From IMG/VR virus record IMGVR_UViG_3300045988_133315, positions 1 through 25,271 of that record: 25,271 nt of DNA; one strand, written 5' to 3'. Shown piece after piece: positions 3,841 to 24,812 of this stretch (position 1 is the first letter of the stretch; each line of letters opens with the position of its first letter). Below the pieces are notes generated by a model. The model was given only the letters and a program-made list of their open reading frames with translations, had not been told where the DNA came from and did no database searches. Source of the stretch: a virus. Made by a program: the position numbers and the translations under genes.

Positions 3841-3872
3841 AAATAAAATGAGCAATCACTATAGATTGCTCA
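3841..3872 (-). terminator. Rho-independent terminator ending the tail-fibre/holin-like/sigma4 transcription unit
   Basis: Perfect 9-bp stem TGAGCAATC/GATTGCTCA (3849-3857 and 3864-3872) with a 6-nt loop, followed on the minus strand by UUUUAUUU. It overlaps the last codons of the sigma4-like ORF. Confidence 0.6.
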
Positions 3873-4092
3873 CATATTTATCGAACATTTTTCTTGCTTT
3901 GCATACTCTGTTCCTTATGGTTTGTACTTCCACACATAATGCATCTGCAATTTCCGTGCATGACATATCATACACGTATCTCATAATCAAAACCTGTTCA
4001 TATTTCTTTCTTAATCCAACAGATTTGATAAGTATTAATGCATCATTAGGACGTATTTCTTTTAATCTGTTAGCTTTGTTAATATAAACCAC
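3859..4092 (-). CDS. Stand-alone sigma-70 region 4 (HTH) protein, 77 aa
   Basis: KKYEQVLIMRYVYDMSCTEIADALCVEVQTIRNRVCKARKMF matches the region 4.2 pattern L..R.v..LRY...s..EIA..lg.s..TV..r..RAr..l. GTG start with a weak RBS. Confidence 0.6.
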   Translation of the reverse strand: MVYINKANRLKEIRPNDALILIKSVGLRKKYEQVLIMRYVYDMSCTEIADALCVEVQTIRNRVCKARKMFDKYVSNL

Positions 4093-4866: not shown

Positions 4867-7662
4867 TTAACTAATAACAATTTTACAAGTATCTTCGTTA
4901 CCATATTTATCAGTAACTTTAACATAAGTTGTTCCAGGTTTCAAAGCAGTATATTTAGCATTTCCACTTGGTGTATATCCATATTCATTTGTTTTTTGTG
5001 TTGGCTGAATAAAGTTTTCATCATAAATGACTTTGCACGTTTTATCGCCAAAGCTTTTATCACTGTTAGGATAAATTAGAATAGTATCACCAACGTTGCA
5101 ATTTATCTCTTTTTGATTAAATACTAAATAAGGCTGTTTAATTTTATTTTTAGTTGACACTTTCACATAGTCCACATACATTTTCTGATCACTTGAACCA
5201 CTTGCATAATATCTCTCATCAATAGCAAAATTAATAATTAATTTCATTCTATTATATCCTTTAGAAAAAGGATTATAATTTTGATAATATAAATTTTCAT
5301 TAATGTTAAATTTAGCAACATTAATTCCATCCATATAAATATCAATATATTCATTTTCCCATTTCATTTTTACATTATGCCATGTACCGTCGTATAGTTT
5401 ATCAATATATACTGCATCCGATAATGGATAACCACCAGGTAAGTTAACGCATTTAGAAGTATGTTCATTGTTTTCGTTAGCATAATGAATAGTACTTTGT
5501 ACGGTAGCTTTTCTACTAATATCATTCATCCATATTTCAAAAATATCTATTTCACCATGATTTGGCCATGTTGTTTCAGACGAATCTGGTGTATATTTTT
5601 CGCCAACAAGCCAAAGAGCAGGCCAAGCACCACCATATAATCCGTCAAATTTAATTTTTGTTAAAATTTCACATCCATTGCTTAAAGTCAAATTATTAGC
5701 AGTATTAACACTTCCAGATGTCCATGAATATCCTCCTTCATAATTTTCTTTTTTCGCAGTTAAAATTAAACAACTATCCGATATAGATACATTTTCTTTT
5801 TTATAATATTGTTTTTCTATATCTTTATTTCTAACAACACCAACTTCTTTTACCCATACATTGCTCAACGTATCATTATTGAAATCATCATAAAATATAA
5901 CATTACCATCAATTTCATCCCCTTCTGAAATTAATTTGTTAGCTATCTTTTCTATGTAAGATTTATTTACTGATGATTCGCTTTTAAAAATTAATGTTTT
6001 GTTTATAAATTCTGTTAAAAAATTCATTCTTATATATGCACACTTTGGTGGTATTTTAAATGGAACATCGCCAATATAGTTTTTAGCGTTTAAATTATCT
6101 TTATCAGCTGTGATAAGGATATTACTCAATAAAGATAAATTTGAATCATAAAAAGATACAATTTTACTAAATCCGTTAGGGAGTGCATTAATTGCATTTT
6201 TTTCATCATCTGATAAATATGAATAGTAATATTCACCTTCATTAACTTTAATAAAATTTGTGGCAGATGTTTTAGAAGCATTATGTATTGAACCATCTAA
6301 ATAAATAACAGATGGGACTGCATCATATTTATTTATATTGCCATTCCAAACAACTTGATAATTTAATGTTCGCAAATATACTTCTTCATCACTAATTCTA
6401 TTCTCAACATCATAAATTCTTTTTTCTAATTTTTCACCAGACGTATAATAAAAATTAACATTTGTAGCGTTTATTGTAACGTTTGTTGATTTAGTTAGTA
6501 TTCTAAGACTAACAGTATCACCAATATCACAAATTTCATTCAATCTATTAGAATCAAATTCAATATTAATATTTCCTATCAATTCAATATCACTTTCAAT
6601 AGTTATCTCGCCACGTTTTCCTTTAACATTTAATAAAAACACATTATCATCAGTATTTTGTATTAATGCATTAAACGAGTATTTTCCATAATTAGAAAAA
6701 TGTGTAAATCGAATAAATACACCTTTATAATTTGTATCACTTCCATTATAGTTATAACTAAATAAATTATTATTTGAATCATAGCTAGATGTACCTATAA
6801 CATCAGTAGCAACAATGGTTTTAAATTTATGTACATTTCCAATATGATATAAAGGTATATCAAGTAATTCATTATTCAAGTCAACTAAGGCATCAGTCAG
6901 CTGTTCAACTTGGCCACGCATCGCATCACCAGTCGAAGCGTATTTAGTACCATCTGCACCGATACGTGCATCAATCAATTCTGCATCTCCGGTTGTGCTA
7001 CCATCTTTTAAGCTAGTAAATTCACTCATTCTAGTTTGTAATGCGGCAATCTTTGTGTTCTGTTTAGTAGTGATATGGCTTGTAGACGCTTCAATCTTTT
7101 CAATTTTGCTATCTTGAGCTGCCACTTTTTCATCCAATGTATTAATGAAATCTGTTGAATTCTTTAATTCATCCGCACATTCCTTTGCTGTAGTAGCACT
7201 TATTGTTGCTTCCGATGAAGCTTGAGTCAACTTTTCCATTAACGTTGCATAGTTATAGTTATTAATTAAATCTTGTGTTTGGTCAATCAAATCATCCAAC
7301 AAATCATAAGAAGATTGAATGTTTGGGTCTACCGGATATTCCCCACTATCTTTATATCCTTTTGATTCTTTAATATGCATCGCAAACACATTTGATAGCT
7401 TGATAATGCTATTATCGTTCAACTTGCTAATAAGTTGAGCAGATGCTATACCACTATGAGCTGTTAAAGGATACCCAATAATAAATCTATCATTTGTTAA
7501 TGGAACGCAATTTTCAATTCCATCAATTGTGTAGTAAATATACTTCTTATTTGTTCCTACATTCTTCATATTAATGAAATGGATACAAAGAGCGTTATGA
7601 TCTCCTTGTTGACCAATTTCAAACGATTTTTTCTTTTTTAAATCTATAGTTAATGTTTCCAT
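4867..7662 (-). CDS. Tail fibre / receptor-binding protein: BppU-N-like N-terminus, coiled coil, GH16 beta-glucanase-like domain, C-terminal Big_2-like Ig domain
   Basis: GH16 signatures GAWPALWLVG and WPNHGEIDIFE (ExDxxE, DNA about 5534-5556). The domain runs from roughly NVIFYDDFNND (about 5905) to KMYVDYVKVS (about 5155). GDAELIDARIGADGTKY is a fibre motif. Confidence 0.85.
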   Translation of the reverse strand: METLTIDLKKKKSFEIGQQGDHNALCIHFINMKNVGTNKKYIYYTIDGIENCVPLTNDRFIIGYPLTAHSGIASAQLISKLNDNSIIKLSNVFAMHIKESKGYKDSGEYPVDPNIQSSYDLLDDLIDQTQDLINNYNYATLMEKLTQASSEATISATTAKECADELKNSTDFINTLDEKVAAQDSKIEKIEASTSHITTKQNTKIAALQTRMSEFTSLKDGSTTGDAELIDARIGADGTKYASTGDAMRGQVEQLTDALVDLNNELLDIPLYHIGNVHKFKTIVATDVIGTSSYDSNNNLFSYNYNGSDTNYKGVFIRFTHFSNYGKYSFNALIQNTDDNVFLLNVKGKRGEITIESDIELIGNINIEFDSNRLNEICDIGDTVSLRILTKSTNVTINATNVNFYYTSGEKLEKRIYDVENRISDEEVYLRTLNYQVVWNGNINKYDAVPSVIYLDGSIHNASKTSATNFIKVNEGEYYYSYLSDDEKNAINALPNGFSKIVSFYDSNLSLLSNILITADKDNLNAKNYIGDVPFKIPPKCAYIRMNFLTEFINKTLIFKSESSVNKSYIEKIANKLISEGDEIDGNVIFYDDFNNDTLSNVWVKEVGVVRNKDIEKQYYKKENVSISDSCLILTAKKENYEGGYSWTSGSVNTANNLTLSNGCEILTKIKFDGLYGGAWPALWLVGEKYTPDSSETTWPNHGEIDIFEIWMNDISRKATVQSTIHYANENNEHTSKCVNLPGGYPLSDAVYIDKLYDGTWHNVKMKWENEYIDIYMDGINVAKFNINENLYYQNYNPFSKGYNRMKLIINFAIDERYYASGSSDQKMYVDYVKVSTKNKIKQPYLVFNQKEINCNVGDTILIYPNSDKSFGDKTCKVIYDENFIQPTQKTNEYGYTPSGNAKYTALKPGTTYVKVTDKYGNEDTCKIVIS

Positions 7663-8707: not shown

Positions 8708-9316
8708 CTAACTCTCTACTTTAATATAAATATCTCCGGCCTTGTCAGTATTTAAAACTGTGGGATCTGTCGTTCCACTACGAACATTTACCGTCAATTT
8801 CAATTGCTCTTGAAAGCGACTAATATATTCATTCAGTTCCGAAATCTTAGCATTGGCTGCATTAATTACTTCAATCGCATTTCTAAATTCTTGCGTAGAT
8901 TTTACATCGACTTGCATTGCGATATTATCAACAACATTAATATAAATATTAAACGTCGTTACATAAGTACTTCCAGACATTAATGAAATTTGTGCCTTAA
9001 CAATACCGGTTTCAGATAACATATTTGCAAATGCATCTGAACCATTAAATTTGACTTCATACGTATCTGTATTGTTGAATCTAATTACCTCATTTGCGCT
9101 TAAAGAAACCATTAATCCACTAGGTTTTTCCGCAAACAACATTGCTGATAAAGTATTATCAACGACTCCGGTTTCACTCGTTACGATATCATCCGTAATA
9201 AAGATATCTAAACCTCTACCATTATCCGCTTTAGGCATGTCAATTACCTGTATATCTGTTTGCTTAGTTAATGATACCGTTACACTTGTGTACACTTGTG
9301 CCATGTTATACCTCAC
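8708..9316 (-). CDS. Baseplate upper-protein-like structural protein (the probable start is ATG at 9304, after GAGG)
   Basis: Position directly after Tal. N-terminal Ig-like pattern and C-terminal coiled coil. No catalytic motifs seen. Confidence 0.55.
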   Translation of the reverse strand: MRYNMAQVYTSVTVSLTKQTDIQVIDMPKADNGRGLDIFITDDIVTSETGVVDNTLSAMLFAEKPSGLMVSLSANEVIRFNNTDTYEVKFNGSDAFANMLSETGIVKAQISLMSGSTYVTTFNIYINVVDNIAMQVDVKSTQEFRNAIEVINAANAKISELNEYISRFQEQLKLTVNVRSGTTDPTVLNTDKAGDIYIKVES

Positions 9317-10895
9317 TTTCTAATACAAGATCTAAATCTTCAGGTCGTTCCGTAATCAAGTTATAGGTCAATTTGTTTAAATAAAACCTTTCTCGTTTTC
9401 CAAAATCAGTCTCTACAAAAATTGAATCATTTATTTTTAACGCCTGTGCATTCGGCACATTGTATGGAAATAATTCTTCAAATTTAACAGACGTTTCCGT
9501 ATTGGGTTCTTGTAACTCTTTTTCTAAAGATTTTTTAGCTTGTATTCTAAGATAGTTTCTTAGGTTCACTTCATTTGTAAATACGCCCAGTGTTGTTTTC
9601 TTTGCTTGTGAATCATCCGCCATCAATTTGATATCGGAATATTCTTTTACATCAATTCTATGAATTTCATCTGTATCCCAATTACTAGCCTTGATAATCT
9701 CGTGATTTGGTAAAATGCGTCCATTGTACGCTTTAGGTATGATTCCTGTAACTACATTTTCCATTGATTTTTTCTGAGTATATTCTGACATTTCTTTATT
9801 ACTTATAAAGAAATCATTTGGCTTCAAATTGGAAGCATAATAATCTGGATTTCCAAAGTAGCAGTCATAATTGTTAAACATCGAAACATATCTGTTATTT
9901 TCACATTCAGGCCATCTGTTCATCATAGAATTTTCTTCTGTACCAAACAAGCATTGAATCAGATTATATCGAACCCAATATGCGGTTTGTGTAGAATCCA
10001 CATCTTCAATCATCCATTTACACGCATTACCAACTTCGGCGGCCCCTCTATCAGCAACAACAACTTTGTTTCCGTTTCCAATGCTTGTTGAACTAGAACA
10101 AATGCCATAATATATGTTTCCATACGGTGCGATTTCATAGTTAGAACCATTATTAATGAACCACCATTTCTCAGAATTATCTGATGGACTTTCAGATAGA
10201 CTTCCTAACACTACCTTTCCTGAATCCAATTTAAGCCATCTACATGAACATAAAGATAAAATTCCATATATATCTCCATATCTATCTGAGCCTACTTTTT
10301 TCAACATGAAAGTCTGTGCAGACGTTCTGTTTTTTTGATACATCTGTAATTGTATAGATGCATCTTCACTTGCGCTTGGAACATCCAAACAATACCCACT
10401 ATTCTGAACATTTCGGAAATAAACGATTTTTTCATCCTCTGCATTAACATTTTCATAATTTGCGTATTCCCCATGTCCATAAATTTTATAAGGATAATTG
10501 GGCCGTGAATTTGTAATAATCTCATTTGCGGTATTCACTGCATCTTGCCACGTACCACTCATAGTACGATCATCAAACACAAACACTTCTTTTTGAGAAT
10601 CAAAGAACACATGTGTTGCATAGCATGTATATGTATCGCTTTGTTTGTTGTATTTTGGATACACAATTCTATATAACTGAGGTTCTTCAAAATTTATATC
10701 CACTTTAAACACGGATTCATCACTGATTTCCATACCCATCAAATCACTTTTTGGAAATTCTATTTCTACGTACCAAACAGAATTTCTTTCAAATACTGCT
10801 TTAGCACTAACACAATGTTTTAAAATTACATCTCCATTACGTTCTTTCATTTGTGCATATGTTGTTTTTTTTCTAGAAAAGAATAAATGAATCAT
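9306..10895 (-). CDS. Tail-associated lysin/tail endopeptidase-family protein (Tal) with an inserted ricin-type beta-trefoil lectin domain
   Basis: Position after Dit. The insert (about 9996-10427) shows three trefoil-like subrepeats: GYCLDV...IQLQMYQKNRTSAQTFML, LKLDSGKVVLG...EKWWF, YGICSS...GNKVVVAD...CKWMIE. Confidence 0.75.
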   Translation of the reverse strand: MIHLFFSRKKTTYAQMKERNGDVILKHCVSAKAVFERNSVWYVEIEFPKSDLMGMEISDESVFKVDINFEEPQLYRIVYPKYNKQSDTYTCYATHVFFDSQKEVFVFDDRTMSGTWQDAVNTANEIITNSRPNYPYKIYGHGEYANYENVNAEDEKIVYFRNVQNSGYCLDVPSASEDASIQLQMYQKNRTSAQTFMLKKVGSDRYGDIYGILSLCSCRWLKLDSGKVVLGSLSESPSDNSEKWWFINNGSNYEIAPYGNIYYGICSSSTSIGNGNKVVVADRGAAEVGNACKWMIEDVDSTQTAYWVRYNLIQCLFGTEENSMMNRWPECENNRYVSMFNNYDCYFGNPDYYASNLKPNDFFISNKEMSEYTQKKSMENVVTGIIPKAYNGRILPNHEIIKASNWDTDEIHRIDVKEYSDIKLMADDSQAKKTTLGVFTNEVNLRNYLRIQAKKSLEKELQEPNTETSVKFEELFPYNVPNAQALKINDSIFVETDFGKRERFYLNKLTYNLITERPEDLDLVLESEV

Positions 10896-15467: not shown

Positions 15468-16084
15468 CTAAAATCTGTCAAAGTCGCTTTGGATTGCTTT
15501 ACGAATACGAATTTTGTTTTTTGAATTATTTACTTTGGACTGCATATTTCCACGTGCAATAATCAAATCAAACAATCTTCCTATGCCCATATCCTCTATT
15601 TCATCTATTTTTAATCCTAAATTTAATCCACCTAATACTAAATCAGTGTAGCTTACGCTTCTTTTTTTTTATCATCTGAAACTACTTCATCGGATTCATC
15701 TTGTACCGTTGCTTTATTTGCATTGATAATTTGTTCTAGAATAACAACTCCACTCATTACATAGGTTTGATAATCTTCAATTTCATCAACAAAATCTTGG
15801 AACGCTTTTGTTTCTTTTCCATGATATGTGTCATACGTCTTGATACATGCCCAAACTAACCTTTCAAAAAATAAAGATCCATTTGCTTGTAATAAAGTGA
15901 AATAAGGATCTCGATCAGGATTTCCTTCACGAACATTTTTTTCGATAGCTTCACCAAATTTGATTTGCACTTCCTGAGTATCCACTAACAAATCTCTGTT
16001 GAAACAATCTCTATAAATGCTAGCCGTTTTGCCTTTATACAATAAATTATATTTTTTACCATCAATAGTTAATGTCTGTTCCAT
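15468..16084 (-). CDS. Tail assembly chaperone G-T fusion made by -1 programmed frameshift at A AAA AAA AAG (15661-15670)
   Basis: The -1 frame after the A9 run is open for about 64 codons (RSVSYTDLVLGGLNLGLKIDEIEDMGIGRLFDLIIARGNMQSKVNNSKNKIRIRKAIQSDFDRF) up to a TAG at 15468-15470, just before the tape measure start. It has no start codon of its own. Confidence 0.7.
15653..16084 (-). CDS. Tail assembly chaperone (gpG-like)
   Basis: Position between the major tail and tape measure genes. Acidic C-terminus ending in an A9G slippery run. Confidence 0.8.
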   Translation of the reverse strand: MEQTLTIDGKKYNLLYKGKTASIYRDCFNRDLLVDTQEVQIKFGEAIEKNVREGNPDRDPYFTLLQANGSLFFERLVWACIKTYDTYHGKETKAFQDFVDEIEDYQTYVMSGVVILEQIINANKATVQDESDEVVSDDKKKEA

Positions 16085-17823: not shown

Positions 17824-18126
17824 CTATTTCACCTTCTTATGAGATTTATCTGTCATAAGAATCTGACGTAAATCCTCATATGTTTTAGCCATTGATTCTT
17901 TATTTGAAGCATCCGTTGTACCAAATTTTGACATTACATATGCTATTACCGCTACTACAATTTCATCTTCTAAATCATCTTCATCAAATAAGATATTTAA
18001 TCTATCCAAATCGTATAAACATGCATTGATATACGTTTTGATTTCATCATCATAAGCATGTGATTTAGCTCTTGTAGCAGCAGTTCTAACACGTTCTAGA
18101 AGGCTTTCAGAAATATTGAACGCCAT
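17824..18126 (-). CDS. gp6-like head-tail connector protein
   Basis: First small ORF after the capsid gene. Helical, 100 aa. Confidence 0.6.
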   Translation of the reverse strand: MAFNISESLLERVRTAATRAKSHAYDDEIKTYINACLYDLDRLNILFDEDDLEDEIVVAVIAYVMSKFGTTDASNKESMAKTYEDLRQILMTDKSHKKVK

Positions 18127-18136
18127 TATCTATCAC

Positions 18137-18300
18137 CTAAGCTTTCTTCGCACTGCTTTTTCGAGTAGTTTTCTTAGGCTCATCATCTAATAAAATAGGT
18201 TCATCATCAGTTCCAACAGGTTCTTCATCATTTAATGATTGTGTTCCTGTTTGACTTTCATCTTTTGTAACATCTCCATTGCTTAAGCTACTTTTTTTTT
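18137..18300 (-). CDS. Putative -1 frameshift extension of the major capsid protein (51 codons)
   Basis: An A9G run (18291-18300) lies two codons before the capsid stop. The -1 frame then reads SSLSNGDVTKDESQTGTQSLNDEEPVGTDDEPILLDDEPKKTTRKSSAKKA up to a TAG at 18137-18139. It contains no ATG/GTG/TTG, in an otherwise unexplained 156-nt gap. Confidence 0.4.
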
Positions 18301-19599
18301 TAACAAGAAGATGTATTGAGGATCTAATACTTTACCATCATTGATAACCAATGCTTGAGTTACTTCCTCATTCTTTTCATAATCCCAGTACTTCTTCACA
18401 CCAAACTGCATATTTGAGTTGATCGCATAGGCTTCTTTTCCAACCCAATACATTCCGAAATATTCACCGTTTTTTGCTTCATCAAAATCTTTGAATGTAT
18501 CATTTTCAACAAAATTAACTGTTCTAGCTTTGAATGTTGCACGTTCTGCACCATCAATAGGATTATATGTTTCTGCATAAACAGGACGATTATTATCATC
18601 GGCCAACGTTTTAATGTTTGCTTCATATGTAGCAGGCGTCATTACGAACTCTGGTTTTAATTTACGCATTGATAAAGGAATCTTTGCGAACAATTTTGTT
18701 TGCCATGATTTCCAATCTTTCATTTCTGCTTCCGTAAATTCAATAATATGATCGGCTTTAATACGACTACCTGATACTTTATTAGCTTCTGTTAAAATAC
18801 CTTCACATTCATTATTTGTAGAGTCACCTGTTAAAATTTCACGATCCATAGCTTCCAAATAAGCTTCTACAATAACTTCTGCTAATTTAGTTTCGAATGC
18901 ATTTACAGTTAATACAGTTTGTAGTAATGTACGTGCTAAACGAATTTCACCAATCAAATATCCAAATTGTACAAATTCTGTAACAGAACCGGCTTTTTGA
19001 CGATCAGACACTGTTGTTTCTGTGATACGTTTAAATGTAGCCTTGAATGAACCGATAGGATATTTAACACCACCACGGAAATTTGTATGTAATACTGCAT
19101 TGTATAAGTAACCACGTGATTTACTTAATTCAGTCATTACTTTCTGAACAATTGTTTCAGGAATTAAAATACCTAGATCAGCTGCCACACCTGCTTCTGC
19201 GCTACGTTGTCTTAAAATTTCTGACTGTTTTCCTTTTTGAACGAATTCCATGAACGCACTACGATACTCCATATCGTCTTCCATTCCTTTTTTACGTTCT
19301 GACAAGTTTGTAGGCATTGATGGATGTGCTTTGCTACGAGCTTGTTCCTGTTGTGTAGCAAAAGCTTCATCTTCATCTACAATAGATTTTGCCATAGTAT
19401 CTAAGAGCGCTTGACGTTGTGCTACCTTGCCTTGTAACTCTTTGTCACGTTTTTGCAAGATATCAAATTCTGCCTGTAACATTTCCAAGTTTGTATTAGG
19501 ATCGTTTTTGTTGACCTCATCTTGAATTTCTTTAAATCTTTTTTGAATCTGTTCGTGATTCATTGCATTGAATGCTGCTAGTTGTTGCTCTGTAAACAT
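18283..19599 (-). CDS. Major capsid protein, HK97 fold, with N-terminal coiled-coil delta/scaffold region
   Basis: Position after the prohead protease, 438 aa, N-terminal coiled coil of about 100 aa. Confidence 0.9.
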   Translation of the reverse strand: MFTEQQLAAFNAMNHEQIQKRFKEIQDEVNKNDPNTNLEMLQAEFDILQKRDKELQGKVAQRQALLDTMAKSIVDEDEAFATQQEQARSKAHPSMPTNLSERKKGMEDDMEYRSAFMEFVQKGKQSEILRQRSAEAGVAADLGILIPETIVQKVMTELSKSRGYLYNAVLHTNFRGGVKYPIGSFKATFKRITETTVSDRQKAGSVTEFVQFGYLIGEIRLARTLLQTVLTVNAFETKLAEVIVEAYLEAMDREILTGDSTNNECEGILTEANKVSGSRIKADHIIEFTEAEMKDWKSWQTKLFAKIPLSMRKLKPEFVMTPATYEANIKTLADDNNRPVYAETYNPIDGAERATFKARTVNFVENDTFKDFDEAKNGEYFGMYWVGKEAYAINSNMQFGVKKYWDYEKNEEVTQALVINDGKVLDPQYIFLLKKKVA

Positions 19600-20210
19600 T
19601 AATTAATAGCCTCCTTAATCTGCAACAACAAACTCAGTCTTTCTCGTTTCTTTTCATTTTCTTTTTTAGTCCGTTCTTCATCCATTAAAGACTTTGCCCT
19701 TGCTTCAATAGATGTTTGATCATTTGCAGGAATCGACACTGCCGAAACATCATAAATTTTTGATACTTTACGTGTTGTCCACATCTTTTTAGATCTATCA
19801 TATGATTCCTCGTCCACCATGTACCTCCATGACATCTGAGTAACCATTCCTGCCTGAATACTGTCGTACAAACGTTTTGCAGCTTCTGTTCTTCCTAAAT
19901 CTGCTGCAACAAACAATCCGTGTTCATCTACTTCAACAATAAGTGAACCATTGCTTGTACGTGCATATACCATCCCTCCATGATCAAATTGGAAGATGAT
20001 ATCACTCATATCAGCGTTGTCCAAACTTGAACGCTCAATCAACTCATATACATCATTACCTTCGTAATCTCGATAAAGAACATAAGGTTCAAATGTTGTA
20101 GCATATCCTTCAACATAGTACTGAGTATCAATCCGTTTATTTTCCGTCACCGGGTTCATTTGGAACGGGATCGAGCGCATTTGGATTTTGCTGTGGTTCG
20201 GTTTCCCCAT
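19599..20210 (-). CDS. Prohead maturation protease (HK97 family); the true start may be an internal Met (20180 or 20159)
   Basis: VEGYATTFEPY... and FQFDHGG motif context. Lies between the portal and capsid genes. 74-nt overlap with the portal if the longest ORF is used. Confidence 0.85.
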   Translation of the reverse strand: MGKPNHSKIQMRSIPFQMNPVTENKRIDTQYYVEGYATTFEPYVLYRDYEGNDVYELIERSSLDNADMSDIIFQFDHGGMVYARTSNGSLIVEVDEHGLFVAADLGRTEAAKRLYDSIQAGMVTQMSWRYMVDEESYDRSKKMWTTRKVSKIYDVSAVSIPANDQTSIEARAKSLMDEERTKKENEKKRERLSLLLQIKEAIN

Positions 20211-21411
20211 TGTAACTAATTCCTCCTTGATTTGATTTAGTTACCTGGATATATTCACCTCGAATAAAACGTTTCTTACCTTCATCATCTGGTAAAGGCG
20301 CTTTGTTCATGATATTTAATGCCCCATTCGTATCAATCATTCCTCTATCGAACATTTGAGTCGCAACATTTAATTTTGTTTGTGTCGAATCATACTGTAA
20401 ACGATCACTTGTAAGAATGATTTCACTACCATTCATAATCTGATTTACGGAATATAACATTCCACTCAACACTTCTCCAACTTCAATAAAAAATGGTTCA
20501 ATAATTGATTCATAAAATGCATTCCATTCATCAGGTTTATATTTATTTTGTAAAATAGCTTCACTAATTCCAAAATAGCTGTATACACTATTTTCAATTG
20601 CTTGTTTCTGCTTGGCATCCACTAATAGTGGTTTACTTTCAATCGGTTTTACTTCATCAAAACGATTATCAACAAGGAATACACCTGTTTCATTTTTGTT
20701 CAGGTTATTTCTTAAGATCATGTTCTGTTGTTCCTTGTAATCCTCATCATCATCAATCGGTGTTGAAATTCTAGCTAAGAATCGAACAATAGAACTCGAC
20801 TTAATCGCATTGATTGCTCCTTCTTCCTGAGCAAGCATCAATTTAGCTGTTGTATCAAATGCATCATTCGTATCACCAAAGTAATCATTTTTATACTGCA
20901 TTTGTCTTAAATGCCCTACTTTACTGTATTCAATCAATTTTGTTTCGCCATAGATAAAATTAAAATAAATATAAACTACACCATTGATTTCTTTTAGTTG
21001 ACACTGACTTGGAACAGCAGGCCATAATCCTTTTATCATTCCATATTCATCTTCAATTGGAATAATGAAAGCATTGTTTTCTGCAAAATAGATAGTTGCC
21101 AATCTTTTATAAAATTGACTAGCTGTCATATAAGGATTTGGCTTTTTCTTAACCAAATAGTTATATATCTTGCTTTTGTAGTCTTTGTTTGTCAGTTCAG
21201 GTGAAGCTTTTCCACATGATGTGGCAATTCGATTGATACATGCTCTGCATAGTCCAATCTCATATATTCCACCATCATATGACGAATACACTGGTGAATA
21301 TCCACCTAAGCTTGCAAACATTGAATGTAATTGATTTTGTTTAGGTGCTGGCTTATTTAGTCCTAATAGACTTCCTAGCAAACCAAATCTTTTTCTTCTG
21401 CTTTTAGCCAC
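20137..21411 (-). CDS. Portal protein (HK97 family)
   Basis: 424 aa, directly downstream of TerL with overlapping stop/start. Confidence 0.9.
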   Translation of the reverse strand: MAKSRRKRFGLLGSLLGLNKPAPKQNQLHSMFASLGGYSPVYSSYDGGIYEIGLCRACINRIATSCGKASPELTNKDYKSKIYNYLVKKKPNPYMTASQFYKRLATIYFAENNAFIIPIEDEYGMIKGLWPAVPSQCQLKEINGVVYIYFNFIYGETKLIEYSKVGHLRQMQYKNDYFGDTNDAFDTTAKLMLAQEEGAINAIKSSSIVRFLARISTPIDDDEDYKEQQNMILRNNLNKNETGVFLVDNRFDEVKPIESKPLLVDAKQKQAIENSVYSYFGISEAILQNKYKPDEWNAFYESIIEPFFIEVGEVLSGMLYSVNQIMNGSEIILTSDRLQYDSTQTKLNVATQMFDRGMIDTNGALNIMNKAPLPDDEGKKRFIRGEYIQVTKSNQGGISYNGETEPQQNPNALDPVPNEPGDGK

Positions 21412-24437: not shown

Positions 24438-24461
24438 AAAAAAAGGACGGTCAAACCGTCC
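24438..24461 (-). terminator. Rho-independent terminator inside the non-coding region
   Basis: The minus RNA reads GGACGGU-UUG-ACCGUCC followed by U7. Confidence 0.65.
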
Positions 24462-24589: not shown

Positions 24590-24625
24590 AAAAAAAAAGA
24601 CGGCTTTATATTTTTGTGCCGTCTT
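24590..24625 (-). terminator. Rho-independent terminator of the HTH regulator gene
   Basis: The minus RNA reads AAGACGGC-(13-nt loop)-GCCGUCUU followed by U9. It overlaps the last codons of the ORF. Confidence 0.6.
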
Positions 24626-24812
24626 CAAATTCAAAATAGCATTTGTATTTTGCGCCTATCGCTTGCGCCATTTTTTCAAGTTCTTCATCTGTGAATTTTT
24701 CGCGTTTGATTCTAGTGCTTACATTTTGCTTGGTGCATCCAAACGCATCCGCGATATCTTGCTGGTTTTTATGAGCATAAGCAAGCGCGGCTATAATTTG
24801 ATTTTCTTTCAT
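24606..24812 (-). CDS. Small XRE/Cro-type helix-turn-helix regulator (68 aa)
   Basis: HTH segment NQQDIADAFGCTKQNVSTRIKR. RBS GGGAGG. It has its own promoter and terminator. Confidence 0.85.
   Translation of the reverse strand: MKENQIIAALAYAHKNQQDIADAFGCTKQNVSTRIKREKFTDEELEKMAQAIGAKYKCYFEFEDGTKI

Follow-up and report, generated by a model that had tools for sequence, protein, structure and literature searches.

The stretch of DNA analysed here, referred to as the window, is 25,271 nt long (IMG/VR virus record IMGVR_UViG_3300045988_133315, positions 1 to 25,271) and comes from an uncultivated phage known from metagenome assemblies. At the 3′ end of its major capsid protein gene, a homopolymeric run of A residues is followed by a −1 reading frame that stays open up to the next gene. 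This run is a candidate for a programmed recoding site that would give a second, C-terminally extended capsid protein. Every gene in the capsid-region part of the window lies on the minus strand, and the features at the end of the capsid gene are the following.

18283..19599, minus strand: major capsid protein gene, 438 aa, HK97 type (Pfam PF05065, E = 1.2e-13)
18292..18301, minus strand: slippery homopolymer A10, in the capsid frame (TT)A AAA AAA AAA and then G; T10 on the plus strand
18283..18291, minus strand: zero-frame tail GTA GCT TAA (Val-Ala-stop)
18137..18292, minus strand: −1 frame extension, 51 codons and TAG (18139-18137), without a start codon of its own
18170..18232, minus strand: acidic D-[DE]-E-P-x-x-x units NDEEPVGT DDEPILL DDEPKK within the extension, from the alignment of relatives
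18140..18178, minus strand: basic tip PKKTTRKSSAKKA, with 6 K/R and no D/E, the best-conserved part of the extension
17824..18139, minus strand: neck/connector gene (ATG at 18126, 100 aa) together with its ribosome-binding-site (RBS)-like TAGGTGAT; PHROG_5223 neck protein, E = 3.3e-12, and PF24829

The capsid gene ends in TTC TTG TTA AAA AAA AAA GTA GCT TAA, and the standard product has the C-terminus ...YIFLLKKKVA. An earlier note on this DNA had read the last codons in the same way and had counted the run as A9; it is A10, made of three in-frame AAA codons and the A of the preceding TTA. The shift-prone TTA AAA AAA AAA G thus occupies 18291-18303, two codons ahead of TAA. After the run the +1 frame stops at once (G TAG), so that the zero-frame and +1 products both end at most two codons past it, and the −1 frame is the sole frame that continues into the extension. 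Read from the last A (18292), the extension is SSLSNGDVTKDESQTGTQSLNDEEPVGTDDEPILLDDEPKKTTRKSSAKKA, exactly the acidic-then-basic peptide of 51 residues that the note had described. The gap between the capsid gene and the next gene is 156 nt, as had been stated, and the TAG of the extension overlaps the RBS-like TAGGTGAT, 10 nt before the neck ATG at 18126.

The predicted long form has 487 aa and is 5.3 kDa above the short form, with VA replaced by 51 residues. Its predicted junction sequences are LLKKKSSLSNGD and ...YIFLLKKKSSLSNGDVTK, and the extension spans SSLSNGD...AKKA. The charges are unevenly distributed: a 38-residue segment with 12 acidic residues and 1 basic residue is followed by the 13-residue tip with 6 basic and 0 acidic ones. 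The extension has no Pfam and no PHROG match, and Tandem Repeats Finder gave no repeat above threshold in the window's own extension. AlphaFold2 modelled residues 437-487 of the fused protein with a pLDDT of 29-37 and without secondary structure. The extension is predicted to be disordered on the basis of this model.

The frame of the extension is open from 18331 to 18140, and in these 64 codons ATG, GTG and TTG are absent, as reported earlier, and so is CTG. This anatomy bears on the idea that the extension is an independent small protein, made from a non-canonical start codon or by re-initiation after the capsid stop. Relatives do have an independent small gene in this place (see below), and ATT and ATA codons occur in the frame. 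However, there are just three of these codons, none with a Shine-Dalgarno sequence upstream; the only ATGs past the capsid stop belong to a 15-codon ORF in the zero frame; and the conserved SxLSNG motif starts directly at the run. An independent protein is therefore very improbable. The chance of finding a 51-codon frame open had been estimated at a few percent. It is indeed low, and the figure is somewhat lower than that: 0.65% from the off-frame stop frequency of 9.4% per codon measured in the genes of the window, or ~1.2% by arithmetic from base composition. The weight of the case rests mainly on conservation in relatives rather than on this probability.

The spacer was also searched for other elements. 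No terminator-like site was found in it, Rfam gave chance-level matches only, and the plus strand has no ORF there. The fold of the 165 nt downstream of the run is no better than that of shuffled sequences (z = −0.95). A non-coding role of the spacer as a terminator, Rfam RNA or folded element was rejected on these results.

The run and the open frame in relatives

The earlier note had proposed to look for the run and the open −1 frame in related phages, and both were found, in 62 of 62 close relatives and in four further lineages at 60-67% capsid identity. The close relatives are 62 informative IMG/VR loci whose capsid proteins are 88-100% identical to that of the window. The run is at the same place in all of them (A10 in 53, A9 in 5, A11 in 4), and the frame after it is open in 62/62, for 44-65 codons. 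These extensions are diverse, with 45 distinct nucleotide versions and 39 distinct peptides. Their length differences are 15, 21, 33 and 42 nt, every one a multiple of 3. The acidic part varies in copy number through units of 21 nt and 33 nt, namely the D-[DE]-E-P-x-x-x units and an 11-residue DESQTGTQSLP unit, which are gained or lost; in one relative (L046), Tandem Repeats Finder detected a 21-nt tandem repeat of 3.6 copies. The two ends of the extension, SSLSNGDV and EPI(L/V)LDDEPKKTTRKSSAKKA, are conserved. Among the substitutions observed in the close family, none creates a stop, against 3.15 expected (P = 0.034). Within this family it is only the frame and the avoidance of stops that speak for coding: the openness appears to be kept, and the same cannot be said of the residues.

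Public protein calls lack the extension. In the entries examined, the named capsid proteins of the group have 437-438 aa (for example, 'MAG TPA: major capsid protein'), and the three capsid clusters examined together hold about 2,170 member sequences.

For more distant comparisons, a protein search gave about 1,600 capsid homologues. DNA was fetched for several of them, and further loci were obtained through IMG/VR scans; two further scans with diverged capsids returned mostly contigs already in the set. Four diverged loci carry a run and a long extension.

L067, 65% capsid identity: gene end TTG TTA AAA AAA AAA GCG GAC TGA (A10); extension of 51 codons, SGLSNGQ...KKNSKKA, with tip KVSTKKNSKKA
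L152, 60% capsid identity: gene end as in L067 (A10); extension of 53 codons, SGLSNGQ...KKSTKKA, with tip TNTKKSTKKA
L068, 67% capsid identity: gene end TTA AAA AAA AAG TAG (A9G; A_AAA_AAG and then the stop); extension of 41 codons, VEISTETDE...TKSSKSSK, with tip TKTTKSSKSSK
L151, 66% capsid identity: pattern as in L068 (A9G, A_AAA_AAG and then the stop); extension of 42 codons

All four extensions are acidic first and K/T/S-rich last, and all stop just ahead of the RBS of the neck gene. Between the diverged lineages the extension is nearly unalignable, yet its frame, length, character and end point are kept. The ratio of nonsynonymous to synonymous changes (pN/pS) in the extension is 0.52 for L067 versus L152, 0.51 for L068 versus L151 and 0.59 for the window versus L152. 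The window and L067 share the motif S-x-L-S-N-G although its codons differ (AGT/AGC, TTA/CTG and AGC/AGT, all synonymous); these same differences turn the zero-frame reading from VA* into AD*. In the aligned genes, the pN/pS values and the synonymously kept SxLSNG are the signature of a translated frame. The diverged lineages, rather than the close family, carry most of the weight of the case for recoding.

The association between run and extension was tabulated for 20 loci. An uninterrupted run of at least A9 is present in 10 of the 20, five with a long extension (at least 41 codons) and five with a short one (about 12-13 residues). The remaining 10 encode the same LLKK(K) in AAG-interrupted codons, with a longest run of 0-6, and have no extension; most of them carry an independent gene of 60-65 aa between capsid and connector. 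In the five loci with a short extension (L069, L119, L120, L121 and L129; 56-58% identity), the capsid gene ends in CTT AAA AAA AAA GTA GCG TAA/TAG (A9), and the short −1 tails after the lysines, such as SSVSTRAKAAAKK and SSVDKTKQSTKE, fill a spacer of 36-41 nt. These may be a miniature of the same recoding, and they are too short for statistics. Short in-frame S/T/P tails after LLKK are tolerated in the relatives P0051, P0068 and P0074.

A standalone small gene at the same position

In relatives at 55-64% capsid identity, a small protein of 60-65 aa is encoded at the position of the extension. It belongs to PHROG_933/16445/2616 (function unknown) and has a weak DUF7210 match. The gene was located as follows.

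L066, 7252-7437: small gene
L071, 3882-4079: small gene
L072, 3770-3952: small gene
L073, 3775-3969: small gene
L145, L146 and L148: small gene downstream of the capsid gene

These proteins share a conserved core, MKLKVI.F.DKYTDELY..G..IEVDE.RG.ELL, and have charged low-complexity tails at the C- or N-terminus. They resemble the extension in their genomic position and in tails that are acidic and then K/T/S-rich (...IVEDEPKEEKPKKKTTSKK versus ...ILLDDEPKKTTRKSSAKKA), and differ from it in having their own ATG and a folded-looking N-terminal domain (MKLKVI.F.DKYTDELY...). The extension tail and the tails of the small proteins match by BLASTP at E = 45-57, which is not significant; homology between them was rejected as not shown at these values, and a common origin is a lead only. 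L066, from Absicoccus intestinalis (NZ_JALBUS010000007.1), was used for the capsid 3′ end only, since its capsid gene is frameshifted mid-gene. The break is at about 6690-6700, and the match resumes in another frame after ...AMDVES*; it may reflect a decaying prophage or a sequencing error.

This small gene is also part of an explanation without any recoding, in which the run simply encodes Lys-Lys-Lys, the spacer is non-coding or a decaying remnant of the relatives' small gene, and the open frame is due to chance or recent history. Indeed, LLKK(K) is conserved as protein also in relatives without an extension, substitutions in the close family look neutral, and about 2 runs of A9 or more are expected by chance in 25 kb (arithmetic from composition). 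On the other hand, a decaying remnant would gain stops at about 9% per codon, and the frame has stayed open in five lineages down to 60% capsid identity, although their sequences can hardly be aligned. Length (41-53 codons), frame and end point are retained with a pN/pS of about 0.5; the indels are all multiples of 3 with zero stops; and uninterrupted runs are confined to relatives with a −1 extension, long or short. We regard the absence of recoding as improbable.

The same cassette in the tail chaperone gene

A second run is used for comparison in the same genome. It lies 2.6 kb downstream of the capsid run, in the gene pair for the tail assembly chaperones G and GT.

15653..16084, minus strand: tail assembly chaperone G gene (143 aa), flanked by the genes of the major tail protein (PHROG_88) and of the tape measure protein
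15468..15662, minus strand: −1 frame T extension, 64 aa (RSVSYTDL...DRF), whose end falls on the RBS of the tape measure gene

The G gene ends in GAT GAT AAA AAA AAA GAA GCG TAA, in which the A9 run occupies 15662-15670 and GAA GCG TAA is the zero-frame tail. Two overlapping ORFs are joined here by a −1 slippery site between the tail and tape measure genes, and this is a G/GT pair. The capsid cassette (18279-18300) and the G/GT cassette (15649-15670), both read on the minus strand, are identical in 19 of the first 22 nt (A9 G.AGC.TAAGC). The earlier note had called the two runs the same; the shared cassette bears this out, with the difference that the capsid run is A10 and the G/GT run A9. The likeness could be due to duplication or conversion, or to a shared requirement for context. 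The G/GT shift is required, and conserved, in tailed phages; the cassette would therefore be expected to shift at the capsid gene too.

Nearly all relatives have A9 at the G/GT run and 3 have A8; the flanks of the run come in four different alleles, among them the 3′ contexts GAATAG and GATTAA. The 3 A8 calls therefore give a rough baseline for homopolymer miscalls in assemblies. At the capsid run, non-A10 calls were found in 9 of 62, compared with these 3 A8 calls at the A9 control, both counts being from assemblies. The capsid run is A9 in L005, L025, L029, L030 and one more locus, A11 in L006, L018, L045 and L052, and of an A8 type (LLKK-SSLS) in P0002 and P0003. A11 and A8 place the extension in frame, giving the capsid proteins of 475-497 aa found in databases, and A9 places it in the +1 frame.

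These variants raise an explanation at the DNA level, that the run length phase-varies by replication slippage, or that A10 is miscalled and the true gene is an in-frame one of 487 aa (A11). Run lengths of 8, 9, 10 and 11 do all occur in public assemblies, and the in-frame fusion is found in 4 of 62 IMG/VR contigs and in about 19 protein clusters. However, 53 of the 62 independent assemblies have A10, as do L064, L067 and L152, and a systematic undercall across many Illumina assemblies is unlikely. Among the database proteins examined, the fused ones are found on a single contig each, whereas many unfused ones recur on several to 22 contigs. The G/GT control shows a comparable miscall rate, although A8 there is non-functional for a −1 slip. 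Such a DNA-level origin of the long form is improbable, and most simply the A8, A9 and A11 variants are miscalls or rare variants. Cluster sizes were rejected as a count of fused versus unfused genomes, because a 'fused' cluster of 410 members holds mostly unfused ones. Rare in-frame fused versions exist, so a gene encoding the fusion protein is at the least tolerated.

The case for recoding

We put at about 0.8 the probability that the capsid gene ends in a programmed recoding site, the A10 run, which gives the 438-aa form and, in part, the 487-aa long form. Several points weigh against it. The support for the long form is that of sequence comparison. No stimulator of frameshifting was found: a Shine-Dalgarno-like motif is absent in the 30 nt upstream of the run (read directly), and no structure was detected downstream (z = −0.95), bearing in mind that a stimulatory mRNA element is common in the class of frameshift-extended capsid genes and not universal. 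The 68 single-nucleotide variants in the extension of the close family fall on the three codon positions 20, 25 and 23 times, without an excess at the third. They comprise 16 synonymous changes (17.4 expected), 32 conservative ones (25.0 expected) and 20 radical ones (22.5 expected), a neutral-like pattern. The conserved ends of the extension could partly reflect constraint at the nucleotide level, imposed 5′ by the context of the slip site and 3′ by the RBS. In 9 of 62 assemblies the run is A9 or A11, where a simple −1 ribosomal slip gives no extension; these may be homopolymer miscalls, and the G/GT control likewise has its 3 A8 calls. The lineages that bear the feature form one clade, so that the correlation of run and extension does not represent independent events. 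Finally, the invariance of AAA in the run is not significant alone (P about 0.1-0.16), since 45-53% of the other conserved Lys columns are polymorphic for AAA/AAG. Selection for AAA over AAG in the run was rejected as not significant.

Ribosome or RNA polymerase

Under recoding, most expression would terminate at TAA to give the 438-aa capsid protein, and a fraction would move to the −1 frame on the run to give the 487-aa form, with its disordered acidic DEEP-repeat spacer and basic K/T/S-rich tip. There are two possible routes. In the first, the ribosome would slip back one base on A_AAA_AAA (A_AAA_AAG in L068). In the second, RNA polymerase would add one extra A while transcribing the run, and the resulting protein would be identical. 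The two carry roughly equal weight; they are indistinguishable from the sequence, and both may contribute. The −1 slip suggested in the earlier note is thus upheld by the comparative evidence as to the extended product, with slippage of RNA polymerase an equally possible cause.

Runs of 9 or more A/T are classical sites of transcriptional slippage (PMC5009743, PMC3711429). A run of 9 A/T is enough for efficient slippage of RNA polymerase, which the dnaX gene of Thermus exploits (PMC5009743). In dnaX genes with 10 A's, the shift has been assigned to transcriptional realignment (PMC3711429). In poly-A reporters in Escherichia coli, the shifted product amounted to 63% with 11 A's, 40% with 9 and 10% with 7 (PMC3711429). 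By analogy with the 40-63% at 9-11 A's, the long form may be more than a minor species. The extended form proposed in the earlier note is supported, but the word 'minor' in it was assumed.

That the long protein arises purely at the level of the transcript, by RNA polymerase stuttering on T10 and adding one A, with the ratio of G to GT set likewise, is a live possibility at not quite even odds, and it is a rival for the mechanism step only. The run has the length known for transcriptional realignment (at least 9 A/T, about the length of the RNA-DNA hybrid, 9-10 nt; PMC5009743): it is A10 here, A9-A10 in the lineages with an extension and A9 at G/GT. A run of at least 9 is found in every lineage or allele with an extension (A10 or A9G at the capsid gene, and A9 with four flank alleles at G/GT), whereas 7 would suffice for a ribosomal heptamer. 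In the other two frames stops follow soon after the run, so transcripts that fall into either of them would give near-normal capsid protein; genome variants with A9 and A11 would still make both forms; and the missing ribosomal stimulator fits as well. For the ribosome, A_AAA_AAA and A_AAA_AAG are also among the best −1 sites, and L068 and L151 have a textbook A_AAA_AAG directly before the stop. The excess of run length is not statistically significant given an AAA usage of 75%. The wider proposal, that the ratios of short to long capsid protein and of G to GT are both set by RNA polymerase stuttering on A9-A10 runs and not by ribosomal frameshifting, is put forward tentatively, with the odds somewhat against it.

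The capsid module and its surroundings

The late genes of the window are arranged in the order HNH, TerS, TerL, portal, S78 protease, capsid, neck protein and three small head-tail genes, followed by the major tail protein, G/GT, tape measure, Dit, further tail genes, holin and endolysin. The gene adjoining the capsid gene upstream is the following.

19599..20210, minus strand: prohead maturation protease, S78 family (PHROG_80, E = 2.4e-39)

PF04586 was found in the equivalent protease gene of relatives. At 19599, the stop of the protease gene overlaps the capsid ATG. At its other end, the listed protease ORF (19599-20210, minus strand) and the portal gene (20137-21411, minus strand) overlap by 74 nt; the true protease start is probably further downstream than listed. 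In fold searches by Foldseek, the AlphaFold2 model of the capsid protein matches HK97-fold capsids (GTA 6tb9, T5 and HK97 1ohg). These matches came from the fold search alone, as a profile sequence search of the PDB with the capsid gave no match. With PF05065, the HK97 fold and the prohead protease directly upstream, this is an HK97-type capsid assembly module. The N-terminal 120 residues of the capsid protein are helical in the model, a delta/scaffold-like region, and the S78 protease directly upstream implies N-terminal processing of both capsid forms.

No near-identical phage was found in GenBank by megablast. The best capsid matches among GenBank phages by tblastn are from Bacillus, Butyrivibrio and Terrisporobacter phages, with 27-33% identity. 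As to the host, the capsid is 94% identical on a contig of a Solobacterium metagenome-assembled genome and 64% identical in a prophage of Absicoccus intestinalis, and the host family is probably Erysipelotrichaceae.

Some further elements of the window were recorded. A 77-aa protein is encoded between the tail and lysis genes (3859-4092, minus strand) and has weak matches to sigma-factor region 4 and Q-like antiterminator families (PHROG_1740, PHROG_79); from these matches, it may be a late-gene regulator. Another A8 run on the coding strand is located at 10865-10872 (minus strand), ~25 nt inside the 529-aa tail gene at 9306-10895. Upstream of the packaging genes (HNH/TerS/TerL), the minus strand has two terminator-like hairpins. 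The one at 24445-24461, from a terminator scan, is GGACGG-TTT-GACCGTCC followed by T7, and the one at 24590-24630 consists of GACGGC, a 13-nt loop and GCCGTC, followed by T9. The A9 run on the plus strand at 24590-24598 is the T-tract of the second hairpin and not a coding slip site.

Comparison with known recoded capsid genes

In phage T7, the minor capsid protein 10B has an extension of about 50 residues. To our knowledge, the capsid shift of T7 does not use a long homopolymer. The 10A/10B pairs of T7 and T3 are similar to the present case in that a −1 shift takes place in the last codons of an HK97-fold capsid gene and both forms are expected in the shell. T7 differs in being a podovirus of Enterobacteria, in contrast to the siphovirus-type cassette here with its tape measure protein and G/GT, and there is no sequence similarity. 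The T7 extension, like the one here, is not Ig-like (PMC5009743). More generally, T7/T3, Lactobacillus phage A2 and Listeria phages A118/A500 are established examples of a −1 capsid extension, and PSA of a +1 extension, so that the precedent in Listeria phages invoked by the earlier note holds (PMC5009743). At the sequence level, the window has what is found in this class: a slip site near the 3′ end, a start-less shifted ORF, and conservation with signs of selection.

Other close parallels are gp5A/gp5B of phage A2 of Lactobacillus casei and Cps of Listeria phages A118/A500/PSA. These are temperate-type siphoviruses of low-GC Gram-positive hosts, with the same order of protease and HK97-type capsid gene. 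In them, a frameshifted C-terminal extension of the major head protein is accompanied by a second shift in a tail gene of the same phage (PMC5009743). The second shift is in the major tail protein in A2/Listeria, but in ordinary G/GT here. The +1 shift of PSA takes place at CCC, with a pseudoknot (PMC5009743). The A2 extension is Ig-like (PMC5009743), whereas the extensions here have 44-65 residues, are of low complexity and are predicted to be disordered, which sets them apart from the Ig-like A2/T3 subgroup. An Ig-like fold (BIG2 / I-set / FN3) was not found in the 51 low-complexity residues of the window's extension, which match neither Pfam nor PHROG and have a pLDDT of 29-37. Capsids of A2/Listeria have no detectable homology to this one, and the best GenBank phage capsid matches, from Bacillus and Butyrivibrio phages, are 29-33% identical.

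Two other systems are comparable at the level of the slip site. In transcriptional realignment, known from Thermus thermophilus dnaX (A9), the 10-A dnaX genes and Shigella mxiE/spa, a run of 9-10 A/T likewise stands at a frame junction with nearby stops in the other frames and gives two products (PMC5009743, PMC3711429). However, dnaX and mxiE/spa are cellular genes with demonstrated transcript heterogeneity, whereas here gene sequences were read, and a ribosomal slip explains these data equally well. The lambda-type G/GT arrangement is alike in having a run, one or two zero-frame codons, a stop, and a −1 ORF that reaches the RBS of the next gene, with 19 of 22 nt shared in this same genome. 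The products of G/GT are assembly chaperones absent from virions, but the capsid extension would be a structural variant. Thus, the present case differs from the known ones in its long homopolymer, which duplicates the phage's own G/GT cassette, in its disordered charge-patterned tail, and in belonging to an uncultivated, abundant phage group. It is very probably a known recoding trick in a new, widespread phage group.

Possible role and implications

We infer that slippage occurs and that both forms are built into the HK97-type shell, where a subset of subunits would bear a flexible charged whisker on the outside. The C-terminus of the HK97 fold is surface-exposed, as used in T7 10B display and in C-terminal fusions of encapsulins; the tail would therefore be external. 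In the fused protein as modelled by AlphaFold2, the fold includes the last capsid strand (YIFLLK, 430-435). From the pattern of conservation, the length of the spacer seems to evolve freely, and the conserved basic tip would be the 'business end'. Possible roles, which are speculative, are weak binding to anionic surfaces such as cell-wall polymers or mucus, or to neighbouring capsomers. The decoration or DNA-contacting tail put forward in the earlier note is likewise speculative.

The extension would correct the gene model of a widespread uncultivated phage group, and would enlarge the short list of recoded capsid variants by a tail that is not Ig-like but intrinsically disordered and charge-patterned. 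Having two near-identical poly-A cassettes in one operon offers a natural pair for separating ribosomal from transcriptional slippage. If RNA polymerase does set both ratios, the 22-nt cassette would be a portable module of transcriptional slippage, a transcriptional version of the otherwise translational G/GT paradigm, and drift of the run length at the DNA level (A8-A11 are seen) would tune or phase-vary the share of tailed capsid subunits. If the tail is displayed outside, it would be a ready site for the study of this capsid type, or for engineered display on it.

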